Below, in pieces: positions 38,719 to 42,515 of a stretch of 64,000 nucleotides of DNA. Origin of the DNA: an uncultured delta proteobacterium (GTDB lineage: Bacteria; Desulfobacterota; Binatia; Bin18); the NCBI GenBank assembly GCA_963733195.1, contig CAVTCR010000053.1:1-64000 (forward strand), in the 5' to 3' direction. The position numbers and the translations under genes were made by a program. Position 1 is the first letter of the stretch, and every line of letters starts with the position of its first letter. Under the pieces are notes generated by a model, which made no database searches, was not told the origin of the DNA, and saw only the letters and a program-made list of their open reading frames with translations.

Positions 38719-39747
38719 ATGGAACAACATTGGTACGGAAACCGTCCTCAGCTTTGGCTGATGGTGTTGTCGTTTGTCCTTGTTACCGCACCGACGGTAC
38801 ATGCCGAAGGTGTAACCTCATCATCTTGGGCGGTGCTTAATGGTCGCAATATTACAGAAGCGGACCTATCTGCGGTCAACAATGGACAAACTGCGCGGAC
38901 GATGCATAACCAAGTGTATCAAGCCCGCAAACAGGCGCTTGATGCCTTTATTACGGACCAGTTACTGGTAGATGAAGCAAAGAAACGCGGCATATCGCGC
39001 GAGCAGCTTGTCCAACAAGAAGTTGATGCGAAAATCGCAGAGCCGACAGCGGCAGAAATTGAACAACTCTATAATGCGAACAAAGCACGTCTCGGTGGGA
39101 AGTCACTTGAGGAATCAAAGCCCACTATTATTTCTCATCTCAAAGGCCAGAAGCGTCAGACGCAAATGCAAGACTTTGTCCGTAGTCTACGGCGAGCTGC
39201 CGGTGTCAAGATGTTGTTAAAACCTCCGCCGCTCAATGTGACTCTTGATGGTGCGCCTACCCGTGGCCCGGCCACTGCTCCGGTGACGATTGTCGAGTTC
39301 TCAGATTTCCAATGACCGTACTGCGCTCGAGTTCAGTCTGAACTCGCCAAGGTTCGTGAGATCTATAAAGATAAAGTCAAAATTGTGTACAAAGATTATC
39401 CTCTAGAATTTCACAAGGATGCACGGAAAGCAGCGGAAGCTTCTCACTGTGCCGGAGAGCAGGGGAAATATTGGGAGTACCATGACGTACTGTTTGCGAA
39501 CACCAACGCTCTTGGTGTTGCCAATCTTAAGAAATATGCAACCGACCTAAAATTGGAAGTGAATCAGTTCACTACCTGCTTAGACAGTGGGAAGTATGCA
39601 GCAGCGATTACCAAGGATACTGCTGAGGGAGTCCAGGCTGGGGTAACTGGGACACCGGCGTTTTTCATCAATGGTCGTTTCCTTTCTGGAGCCCAACCGT
39701 TCGCGTCGTTCCAGGATGCAATTGAGGAAGTGCTGGAAACGCAGTGA
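38719..39747 (+). CDS. Secreted DsbA-family thioredoxin with SurA-N-like domain; probable selenoprotein (UGA at 39313-39315, UPYC)
   Basis: ORFs 38719-39315 and 39385-39747 share a frame; EFSDFQ-TGA-PYC places UGA at the N-terminal Cys of CxxC; GVTGTPAFFING cis-Pro loop. Confidence 0.88.
39328..39346 (+). promoter_or_regulatory. Bacterial SECIS-like hairpin
   Basis: CGAGTTCA-GTC-TGAACTCG perfect 8-bp stem starting 12 nt after the UGA; G in the apical loop. Confidence 0.75.
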
Positions 39748-39865
39748 AAGACTGAGGACTGAGTGCTCAGGACTGAGTTTAGAAAGTTTCAAGTTTAACG
39801 TTTAAGGTTCAAAGTTTACGGATTACGTTTTACGCATCACATTTTACGCTTTGCACTTTGCAACT
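39748..39865. repeat. Composite degenerate heptamer tandem array
   Basis: AGGACTG-type units, then AAGTTTA-type, then CGTTTTA/CGCATCA-type, then CACTTTG-type. Confidence 0.75.
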
Positions 39866-39931
39866 GATCGTCCTTCTCCGTCTGCTGTACCCCTCTTGGC
39901 GGGTCAGAAACGGCTATGGTAATTGTTGCGC

Positions 39932-41141
39932 ATGGCTGACAACACAACCAAAACTGAACGTCGAGTGACGCCGGGTGCACCACCACCCCGACCAACTACT
40001 ATCACCCCTCGAACTTGGCCGCTCTTGGCGATCCGCATCCTTGCCTTCGTGGGGATGTGTATTGCCGTGTATTTATCCGTTCTTCATTACCAGGCTGGCA
40101 CGCACGGAACCTTCGCTTCGCCTTTGTGCACCATCAGTTCGACAATTAACTGCAACGCCGTCTTAGGGAGTGTCTACGCGCGGCTCTTTGGCGTGCCGAT
40201 TGCCACTTGGGCAGCGCTCACCTATGCCGCCATATTGGGTGTGTCTTTCCTTGGTTCGATTAGTGTTCTCGTTTTTTTGTGTAGCTGGTCTTTCATTTTC
40301 TCTCTCTACATGGCCGGTCTCTCGCTGTTCACTCTTCAGGCGGGATGCCTCTTCTGCATGAGCTTGTATGCCGTTAATATCGGCCTCTTCATCAGTGCGC
40401 TTGCACTGACCAAGCAGGCGAGGAATTTTAGTTTTCGGCAGTTGCAGTATGGCCTTGCGGCATGTGTAGTCCTGGCTCTCGCGTTCGGTTGGGCACAAGC
40501 GAAACTTGCCGATACAATTACTCCCCCCGGAGGTCTCTTCAGACAAAGGCTTCACGGAAACCTATGACAAACTACGTCAGGTCACGCTCAACGTTGCAGA
40601 GAGAAACACCAAAGGTTCACCACAAGCGGCAGTAACCATCAGTGAATTTCTTGACTTTCGCTGTCCCGCATGTGCCCGCGCTCGTGAGACGCTCTCAAAA
40701 CTTGTCGAAAAGTATCCCAACGACGTGCGTGTGGTTTTTCATTCGTACCCACTCGACAACGAATGCAATTCCAGCCTGCCACAGCAAGTGCATGCTGCGT
40801 CCTGCCTGGCATCCTATGCCGCGGAGTGTGCCAGTGAACAAGGAAAGTTCTGGGAATTTGCTGATCGGTTGTTTGCCGATCAGCAACGAGTATTCTCCCG
40901 TCCAGACCTTGAAGTTCATGCGGGCGCCGTAGGGCTCGACATCAATAGCTTCAACACGTGTATGAACAGCGGGCAGACGAAAGGGATAGTTCGCCGGGAT
41001 GTTGAGGAAGGAATACGTATCGGTGTGAATGCAACGCCTACACTAGTGATCAACGGACGCGTCGCTGAAGGGCTACCCACTCCTGAACAGTTTGACACCA
41101 TCGTCGCAATTGAGAAGCAACGAGCGATGGCAAGCAAGTGA
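39932..41141 (+). CDS. VKOR-DsbA fusion protein (frameshift near 40520)
   Basis: VKOR LCTISSTINCNAV and CLFC; thioredoxin DFRCPAC, GVNATPTLVING. Confidence 0.88.
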
Positions 41142-41142
41142 T

Positions 41143-41190
41143 GAGGACTGAGGACTGAGTCGACGAGGACTAAGGACTGAGGACTCAGTC
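41143..41190 (+). repeat. AGGACTG heptamer array (left flank of the four-helix-bundle gene)
   Basis: gAGGACTG AGGACTG AGTCGACG AGGACTA AGGACTG AGGACTC. Confidence 0.8.
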
Positions 41191-41605
41191 AGAAGTTTCC
41201 TCGTTGTTCAGATTTCTCTGTTTCTCGACTGAGACGCGTAAGCCTCCAACAATACGAGCCAAGTTCTTCTGGCCAAGGACAAGAGCGTATCAAAAGTCGA
41301 TTGGTCAAGTATGGCCAACGTCGAGAGCGACGTAAAGCTGAGACCGAACTTCAGCGCAGGATGCTTTTGCCACAGAGAGCAAATTGGTGGAATTCTCCAC
41401 GTCCTCCTCGTTCAAATCCTTCGGCAATATTCGACATGATAGACACTGCAGCGCGTTGGATTTGCCCTGAGAGTCCAAAGTCTTTGGCGAAAGAGCCTTT
41501 CTGGGTGATCGCATAGATTTCTCGGGTGAGGATTCTTGCCTTCTGCCATGCTACCAAATCCTCAAACCGCTCGATACGTTTGACTCGATCAGCTTTATTC
41601 TCCAT
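41185..41605 (-). CDS. Four helix bundle protein (23S rRNA IVP/bAvd-like family), frameshifted
   Basis: [11 protein letters not shown]...[25 protein letters not shown]...[16 protein letters not shown]. Confidence 0.88.
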
Positions 41606-41637
41606 ACTCAGTCCTCATTACTCAGTCACTCAGTCCT
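41606..41637 (-). repeat. Inverted CAGTCCT/CTCAG heptamer array (right flank)
   Basis: ACTCAGTCCTCATTACTCAGTCACTCAGTCCT, reverse complement of the left array type. Confidence 0.8.
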
Positions 41638-41640
41638 TTC

Positions 41641-42312
41641 CTACGCGACGATGACATGCTCCTTCGTAATAATCACCGGAAGTTTCCCTGGTGCAATGAA
41701 GTTGGGCTCATCGGCTCGTGTGCGGTCATATTCTGGTGTGGTCGCTGAGACACGCATCGCTTGTGTATCGTCGAACCAGGTGATGGCGACACCATCGTAT
41801 GCTGGAGCTTTCCCACTCTTATATGCTGACAGTCGCGTGTGGCTTTGCACGTAACGGCGAACCACAGGAATTGAAGCACCAAGTGGGCCATGAATTTCTC
41901 GCCAGTGTTTTTGAAACGCTTCGATCACCATGCCAGGTTTGTGGGTGACGAACTCAATGTTTTTTACTCCATCAGACGGAATCGCCCCGTTTTTGATCAC
42001 GTGTTCCTCTGTAATGATCTGACCCATGGTTGAACGATCAATGAAGTTGAGTTCGTCAGTTTGGGTCGCAGCCAATTCTGCTGTATTGGTTAACGCTCGC
42101 AAGGCATTCGTGTCGTCGTACCAAAGCTCGGCAGTTCCATCATAAACAGGTTCTCCCTTCCGATAGCCGGACACCAAGGTGTGTGATTGTACGTAACGGC
42201 GAAGGCCTGGAAGTCTCTTGACGACCTCAGCATGCGTCGTCCGCCAATATTTCTGGAAATCTTCTACTGCCATCCCAGGTTTACGTTTGAAAAAAGCGAC
42301 AACTTTGACCAT
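41641..42312 (-). CDS. Tandem EthD-domain protein
   Basis: Two repeats of KPGM..E.FQK.WR..H...RRYVQSHT...YDG. Confidence 0.88.
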   Translation of the reverse strand: MVKVVAFFKRKPGMAVEDFQKYWRTTHAEVVKRLPGLRRYVQSHTLVSGYRKGEPVYDGTAELWYDDTNALRALTNTAELAATQTDELNFIDRSTMGQIITEEHVIKNGAIPSDGVKNIEFVTHKPGMVIEAFQKHWREIHGPLGASIPVVRRYVQSHTRLSAYKSGKAPAYDGVAITWFDDTQAMRVSATTPEYDRTRADEPNFIAPGKLPVIITKEHVIVA

Positions 42313-42448
42313 GTTCTAACGCCTCCTTTGAAAATATATGAGTGTAATTGCATGATGGGTTGTAGTCTGGAAAGAACAAGAGGGTCAAGGGAAGCCTCAC
42401 GATCCATTGAGCGTGTATCAGCGAAAGCGTATAAGGGGCCAAAAGAAT

Positions 42449-42515
42449 AAAACGTGGAACGTAAGAGAAAAAAGAAGAGCGTGGTTACGCATCACGTATC
42501 ACGTACTACGTCTCA
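42449..42515. repeat. Inverted heptamer arrays
   Basis: TAAAACG TGGAACG ... TTACGCA TCACGTA TCACGTA CTACGTC. Confidence 0.65.

Follow-up and report, generated by a model that had tools for sequence, protein, structure and literature searches.

Inverted heptamer arrays around a four-helix-bundle gene in a Binatia genome: a possible intervening-sequence-type cassette outside the rRNA genes

Why does a small gene sit exactly between two inverted arrays of seven-nucleotide repeats, in the gap between two protein-coding genes of its host? The question is raised by positions 41143-41637 of a 64,000-nucleotide stretch of contig CAVTCR010000053.1 (assembly GCA_963733195.1, an uncultured delta proteobacterium of the GTDB lineage Desulfobacterota; Binatia; Bin18); the whole stretch is referred to here as the window. 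The gene encodes a four-helix-bundle protein of the family PF05635 / TIGR02436, named '23S rRNA intervening sequence protein'. The function of PF05635 and the heptamer repeats of bacteria are both unexplained, and a gene-in-hairpin unit offers one testable handle on both, because it recurs across phyla, follows an orientation rule and rises in copy number with array density. With about even confidence, we read the unit as an intervening sequence (IVS)-type cassette that lies outside any rRNA gene, rides in the 3′ region of a host mRNA, and is set apart from that mRNA by a stem.

A gene enclosed by inverted heptamer arrays

The whole unit covers about 495 nt and is read on the minus strand. It comprises a 5′ arm (41606-41637, minus strand) with the sense-strand units AGGACTG, AGTGACT and GAGTAAT, the four-helix-bundle gene itself (41185-41605, minus strand), and a 3′ arm (41143-41190, minus strand) of sense-strand CAGTCCT-type units. 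The upstream, co-oriented host gene encodes a 223-aa EthD-domain protein (41641-42312, minus strand), and a VKOR-DsbA fusion gene (39923-41141, plus strand) converges on the unit from the other side. The cassette occupies the entire gap between the stop codons of these two genes and thus lies outside any 23S or 16S rRNA helix. Its 5′ arm starts 3 nt past the EthD stop codon and ends at the cassette ATG (41603-41605), while the stop of the gene's last reading frame (41185-41187) lies within the 3′ arm, which reaches the stop codon of the VKOR-DsbA gene. A Shine-Dalgarno-like GAGGA word is found inside the last unit of the 5′ arm. A first-pass annotation of the window, made from the sequence alone, had described inverted AGGACTG and CAGTCCT arrays framing the gene, with the stop codon inside the left array (our 3′ arm), the ATG abutting the right array (our 5′ arm), convergent neighbours, and no transposase. 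These coordinates bear out that description, and a Pfam scan of six neighbouring open reading frames (ORFs) found no transposase.

AGGACTG occurs on the plus strand at 41144, 41151 and 41173, and its complement at 41609-41615 and 41631-41637, with degenerate units between the copies. The raw count of this word in the window is not significant, at 13 against 7.13 expected (13 or more in 5 of 100 shuffles; 6.3 per 64 kb over the whole genome), but seven of the 13 matches fall in three clusters that span less than 130 nt. Both arrays were called as period-7 by Tandem Repeats Finder (TRF), at 41142-41185 and 41605-41634. Complementarity between the arms is 77% over 31 nt (41151-41181 against 41607-41637) and 89% over 19 nt (41142-41160 against 41606-41624), and pairing of the two inverted arrays gives a closing stem some 35 bp long. 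When the 511-nt sense RNA is folded for minimum free energy, the arms pair as this stem (-176.5 kcal/mol, z = -3.67), and none of 100 shuffles folds as well. There was no Rfam match in 39000-42500 at E <= 1.

The N-terminal 84 aa of the predicted protein match PF05635 at 72.1 bits (cut-off 33.8). An intact orthologue from the same site in a relative matches TIGR02436 at 117.6 bits (cut-off 24) and the PDB entry 2GSC with E = 1.4e-15. As assembled, the frame of the gene is broken three times relative to the intact orthologues of three relatives (G013, G008 and G001; the genome under study is G000, and other G numbers denote relatives), near 41380 (+1), near 41311 (+1) and at 41270-41275 (+2). 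Apart from these breaks it is colinear with the intact orthologues of 126-131 aa. Six of the eight PF05635 copies in this genome are interrupted, and we considered a pseudogene reading, together with a side idea that arms and gene decay in parallel (arm scores of 52 and 59 for intact copies, and 29-41 for broken ones). Both were dropped, since rpoB lies in three frames and rpoC in four pieces in the same assembly (C71:133111-141235), the VKOR-DsbA gene is split at a run of six C (40522-40527) and is a single ORF in all six relatives examined, and the PF05635 matches of relatives are mostly full length. Because rpoB and rpoC are also split, the three breaks are probably assembly errors, and in the organism itself the gene is probably unbroken. 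GGCCA words mark the sites of two of the indels, which hints at a systematic consensus error.

We see the same arrangement throughout the genome. A profile search placed PF05635 at eight loci, and all eight, on a check that the first-pass annotation had proposed for paralogues, are flanked by inverted 7-nt arrays with a unit specific to each locus (GGGGTCG, GGAGTCT, GGATAAG, GAGAATG, AGGGAAT, AGGACTG, AAGGTTC and GGGTGTT). An additional profile search of the six-frame translation added only one relic (C50:106966-107073, E = 0.88), which likewise lies between inverted arrays. Among the control genomes, Bacteroides thetaiotaomicron alone matched PF05635. The proteins of the eight copies are only 21-52% identical, and the eight cassettes share no terminal sequence.

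Recurrence across phyla and the upstream gene

The sample was extended to 80 loci from 13 phyla, with one genome per species, which together with the eight loci of this genome and three orthologues makes 91; 90 of these were analysed, as one flank was too short. In 72 of the 90, the two flanks scored higher for complementarity than 95% of mismatched flank pairs (median score 36, against 16 for the latter). Most of the 18 sub-threshold loci still show arrays by eye, some of them in direct order. The best repeat period was 7 in 51 of 63 5′ arms and 52 of 63 3′ arms, with a lag-7 autocorrelation of 0.65. A period of 8 gave the best fit in 11 of the 5′ and 10 of the 3′ arms (63 each), mostly in GTGTCACG-type units from Chloroflexota. 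The median cassette length was 516 nt (61 loci). The arms also have a strand-specific core: at 37 of 72 loci the 5′ arm contains AGTC two or more times, compared to 4 of 72 for GACT, and GAGTC is frequent in the arms of these 72 loci. The cassette in the window belongs to the reversed (GACT) minority.

Arm similarity tracks protein identity (Mantel rho 0.26, reached by none of 500 permutations), and therefore gene and arms travel together. This similarity is already gone below about 70% protein identity. The protein tree shows 20 changes of phylum, where the minimum is 12 and shuffled labels give about 43; inheritance is thus likely to be mostly within phyla, with some cross-phylum transfer. 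The family was found on 28 of 72,556 plasmid records, mostly from heterocystous cyanobacteria, and 13 of the 28 plasmids are conjugative. No match was obtained in 50,697 phage records at E <= 1e-8. On plasmid pNPUN01 of Nostoc punctiforme PCC 73102, a culturable carrier of the same layout, the gene NPUN_RS33770 (1617-1982) lies between inverted CAGGAGT and GACTCCT arrays, and its cassette begins 3 nt past the stop of the upstream gene, inside a run of co-oriented genes. A separate copy on the gamma plasmid of Nostoc PCC 7120 (pCC7120gamma) is an exception, with pyrimidine-rich arrays on both sides in direct order, beside an ISL3 transposase.

The position of the cassette relative to its neighbours follows a rule. 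Of the 61 foreign loci whose arms are significant, 50 have a nearest upstream ORF that is co-oriented with the cassette gene and 4 have an opposite one; 7 have none within 400 nt. The ratio of 50 in 54 differs from a baseline of 0.70 with p = 5.6e-5, and in 36 of the 50 co-oriented loci the stop of the upstream gene lies no more than 16 nt from the arm. Downstream neighbours at the same loci show no such rule (26 co-oriented, 16 convergent). Seven of the eight cassettes in this genome also have a co-oriented upstream gene. As the upstream gene is mostly co-oriented and its stop usually abuts the 5′ arm, these data suggest that the cassette is transcribed by read-through from the upstream host gene. 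For the cassette in the window, the minus strand upstream of the gene shows no promoter-like site, and with the onset only 3 nt after the EthD stop, the cassette is most likely the tail of the EthD mRNA. A scan for terminator consensus sites returned one site, inside the gene, where 1.5 were expected from shuffles.

This arrangement recalls the ORF-bearing IVS elements of 23S rRNA in Coxiella and Leptospira, in which terminal inverted repeats pair as a stem whose loop contains a gene of the same PF05635/S23p family. According to the available part of Warrier et al. (2016, PMC4990558), the Coxiella burnetii IVS is 428-444 nt long, near the 495 nt seen here, and its S23p ORF occupies the loop of a terminal stem of 28 bp, which RNase III cuts at its middle in vitro. 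Stem lengths are thus in a similar range (about 28-35 bp), and in both cases the unit would lie inside a host transcript. The cassette differs from these elements in lying between protein-coding genes and not in helix 25 or 45 of 23S rRNA, and in having arms built of tandem 7-nt arrays; cutting by RNase III, seen for Coxiella in vitro, is here a prediction.

By analogy, the cassette would be transcribed as the tail of the EthD mRNA, and its arms would pair in the transcript to form a long double-stranded stem, a substrate of the RNase III type. An RNase III is encoded in this genome (235.7 bits, cut-off 166). Cleavage by it would release the loop RNA from the host message, so that the cassette would cost the host little. 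The stem would also bury the ribosome-binding site of the cassette gene. In this reading the arms renew themselves through slippage and through the amplification, on either side, of variant units, with complementarity kept, and gene and arms are inherited, lost and occasionally transferred as one piece. A hairpin-cassette layout of this kind would also explain the presence of the gene inside unrelated operons. The available text of Zhang et al. (2014, PMC3936711) reports 18 genes of this kind within cas loci, one example lying between cmr3 and cmr2, and these may be hitch-hiking there, with no functional link.

Several results weigh against the IVS-type reading. The orientation counts are approximate, as they come from a crude ORF caller and from loci that are not fully independent. 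None of 54 loci has a T-tract after the 3′ arm, and on this ground a role of the unit as a classical terminator was rejected. Selection on a sense-strand RNA stem would predict more G.U-type than A.C-type mismatches, and the 72 arm alignments give the wrong direction (82 G.U against 121 A.C, p = 0.0075; by locus 22 against 37 with 13 ties, p = 0.067), so this asymmetry lends no support to a selected stem. Public sequence runs gave no evidence of expression or processing and none on the indels, and contained only small fragments as contigs: no run contained more than 0.25 of the sampled words, all were soil or sediment metagenome contigs, and there was no bridging contig and no joint. One contig of a relative, from an RNA library, spans 41455-41582, and another runs from the end of the DsbA gene into a GAGTGAT-type array; neither shows transcription. 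For Coxiella itself, S23p seems not to be made in vivo according to the same partial source (PMC4990558), which bears on any role of the protein. Finally, most heptamer arrays in this genome lack the gene (757 arrays against eight family loci), and one relative, G016, has arrays with no PF05635 match at all.

Filled and empty sites in relatives

The locus was fetched from 11 relatives by means of the EthD protein. Four of them have the cassette at this site, likewise oriented, namely G013, G008, G020 and, from the same genus, G001; in G020 the copy is partial, with an internally deleted gene and arms that were read by eye only. Another four have an empty site with 19-35 nt between the two stops: G002 (same genus), G010, G011 and G016. 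Such empty alleles had been proposed as a check in the first-pass annotation. The empty site of G011 retains heptamer relics of both sides. The remaining three relatives were uninformative, one because the locus is at a contig end and two because there is no adjacent DsbA gene. The cassette protein is 67-80% identical in amino acids to its orthologues, across at least four genera, in parallel with 79-92% for EthD. Since the divergence of the orthologues parallels that of EthD, we judge from these comparisons that the same-site copy is old, has been lost several times, and is not a recent insertion. No target-site duplication was seen on comparing filled and empty sites.

Could the unit instead be a mobile element at the DNA level? 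The arrays would then be terminal repeats or DNA hairpins (cruciforms), a host recombination or replication function would insert, delete and copy the unit, and the RNA stem would be a by-product. Several observations are compatible with this: the filled and empty alleles at one site, the relics of both sides in G011, the excess of phylum changes over the minimum (20 against 12), which makes some cross-phylum transfer likely, and the 28 plasmid records, 13 of them conjugative. The lack of a wobble signature on the sense strand also fits, as any excess of G.T-type pairs is, if anything, antisense, and the AGTC core of the 5′ arm (37/72 against 4/72) could be a recognition word. However, neither a transposase nor an integrase was found in or beside the unit among the six ORFs scanned, and target-site duplications are missing. 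The eight copies, which have no common termini and are 21-52% identical, give no sign of transposition within the genome. Co-orientation with an upstream gene whose stop the unit abuts is not expected of a DNA transposon, and the phage records held no match. The cassettes resemble MITEs (miniature transposable elements with inverted repeats) and the repetitive extragenic palindromes and bacterial interspersed mosaic elements (REP/BIME) in being short, dispersed, intergenic inverted repeats with many copies, as with a 34-nt array found here 30 times, and differ from them in the lack of a shared terminal consensus, of target-site duplications, and of a cognate transposase in the cassette. On balance we regard a DNA-level mobile element as an unlikely explanation. 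What stands of the earlier proposal of a minimal mobile cassette is a discrete unit, filled in four relatives and empty in four, whose arms and gene are inherited together; the age of the copy, the missing target-site duplication and the lack of common termini do not agree with the mobile part.

The orthologues vary in the repeat sequence of their arms. The arm units are AGGACTG in G000 and G013, GAGTGAT or GAGTAAT in G001 and G008, and GGAAAGT in G020. Despite the differing units, the arms are still complementary in G001, G013 and G008, and the arms of G008 carry a compensated CGAGTAA/TTACTCG variant. Between G000 and G001, the outermost units beside the host genes are conserved and the inner units have been replaced, in a pattern that looks like amplification of variant units by slippage.

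These comparisons also bear on a proposal, first made in the first-pass annotation, that every four-helix-bundle protein is specific for the heptamer sequence in its own pair of arms, which it would recognise as RNA or single-stranded DNA. Each paralogue does have its own unit, and the solved relatives 2GSC and 2RLD were each deposited with five chains. A distant kinship to Avd, the small, nucleic-acid-binding four-helix-bundle protein of diversity-generating retroelements, was part of the same proposal; it holds as a distant match to the profile NF033474 (E = 0.0011), and fails as an assignment, because the score of 19.3 bits is far under the cut-off of 80. Nor does the locus resemble an Avd system in its surroundings, as the six neighbouring ORFs scanned include no reverse transcriptase (no dedicated search was made) and no template or variable repeat was seen among these neighbours. 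Orthologous proteins of about 80% identity sit between different heptamer units (AGGACTG in G013, GAGTAAT/GAGTGAT in G008), which makes it unlikely that the protein recognises the unit by its sequence. The same-genus pair G000 and G001 also differs in its units, and arm similarity does not persist below about 70% protein identity. Taken together, we find heptamer recognition very improbable. If the protein binds anything here, our guess would be the stem or its own RNA, and not the heptamer sequence.

Heptamer arrays across the genome and nearby features

Across the 6.95 Mb of this genome, TRF returned 757 arrays of the period-7 class, compared to 253 of period 6 and 179 of period 8. The arrays are thus not a private feature of the gene. 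An inverted partner within 200 nt was found for 162 of them, against 4 in a reversed-array control, and array pairs less than 100 nt apart are inverted in 44 cases and direct in 2. All five inverted TRF pairs that lie 300-500 nt apart enclose PF05635 sequence. Inverted pairs 0.9-2.7 kb apart enclose ordinary genes, and were considered as carriers of other cargo; this was rejected, as the counts at 1-3 kb (13 inverted, 12 direct) are at chance level. The cassette arms of this genome have unit families in common with 131 of the 746 arrays that lie elsewhere in it (median of 13 shared-unit arrays per own arm, against 1 per foreign arm, p = 0.018). One array, 34 nt long and made of AGTAGTC units that include a fixed internal variant, is repeated in 30 near-identical copies whose flanks are unrelated, for example at C53:64601 (just past the window), C81:149318 and C81:150271, and its sequence is that of the arms of a decayed cassette at C50:106739-107182.

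Array density was compared for 20 genomes of the class on samples of 100-200 kb apiece, except for G000, where the whole genome was used (the sampled regions of G010 and G011 were not random). Genomes with more PF05635 matches have denser arrays (Spearman 0.75, among 20 genomes whose kinship makes them non-independent). Eight genomes have no PF05635 match, and seven of these have 0-25 arrays per Mb. The eighth is G016 (genus g10, 93% complete), where the EthD/DsbA site is empty and the density is 95 arrays per Mb, from 19 heptamer arrays in 200 kb whose unit families are the same as in G000. Arrays therefore persist without a detectable gene.

A second gene-less example is found within the window. 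The cluster at 39748-39860, to which no strand is assigned, holds AGGACTG units followed by AAGTTTC- and ACGTTTT-type units, and lies between the stop of a DsbA-like gene and the VKOR start. The recurrence of the repeat near 39748 had been seen before, and is confirmed by copies of AGGACTG at 39755 and 39769. Related arrays occupy the equivalent gap in G001 (about 11 ACTGACT units up to the contig end, plus ACGTTTT units) and in G013 (an AAAACGT/ACGTTTT hairpin), and there are none in G002. No four-helix-bundle gene was found in this gap in G000, G001, G013 or G002.

Such data could mean that the arrays are an independent, lineage-wide class of repeat like the short tandemly repeated repetitive (STRR) sequences, a heptamer-repeat class of cyanobacteria, and that the gene merely survives best in hairpins or borrows local arms. 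The excess of period 7 over period 6, the 162 arrays with inverted partners, the G016 genome, the gene-less gap at 39748 in G000, G001 and G013, and the unit families shared between cassettes and other arrays can all be accounted for in this way. On the side of the gene, though, the association is near complete, at all 8 loci of this genome and at 72 of 90 in total. The five inverted pairs at cassette-like spacing all enclose PF05635, with no other cargo at 1-3 kb, the density of arrays follows the number of matches, and the arms co-vary with the protein. We consider an independent array class a doubtful explanation for the cassettes, and continue to prefer the IVS-type reading for them.

Heptamer arrays have been described in other bacteria. 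The available parts of two papers report 70-75 inverted pairs of GGGAATC arrays in Xanthomonas and GGGGA(T/C)T arrays in Nostoc (Rehm et al. 2015, PMC4692102), and TAACTGA repeats in Beggiatoaceae (MacGregor 2015, PMC4679880). Like the arrays seen here, these are intergenic 7-nt arrays, often in inverted pairs, present many times per genome, and with no known function; unlike them, the arrays here form the arms of a gene cassette. The Xanthomonas pairs are described with no reference to this gene, and the available parts of both papers contain no mention of a four-helix-bundle, S23 or 23S-IVS gene, which fits an independent class of arrays. In the literature covered, with subscription journals and supplements outside that coverage, we found no description linking this gene family to flanking heptamer arrays. 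The orientation rule, the wobble test, the census of 757 arrays, and the relative with arrays but no gene are new here.

A broader and quite speculative extension, which we hold to be rather improbable, is that the cassettes belong to a very widespread selfish element as its autonomous members, and that this element lives on read-through transcripts. The STRR sequences, the GGGAATC pairs of Xanthomonas and the roughly 750 arrays of this genome would then be gene-less derivatives or footprints of it, and a pentameric protein would make or spread hairpins in a 7-nt register.

One further observation concerns the DsbA-like gene that precedes the gene-less cluster (38719-39747, plus strand), which has a SurA-like N-terminus. 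It forms a single frame with an in-frame TGA at about 39316-39318, precisely where the CxxC motif has its first Cys (FSDFQ-TGA-PYC), and an 8-bp hairpin, read by eye, lies about 14 nt past this TGA. The orthologue in G002 has the same TGA, and the genome encodes both a tRNA-SeC (C11:21479-21574) and SelB (397.8 bits), which makes the DsbA-like protein a candidate selenoprotein.
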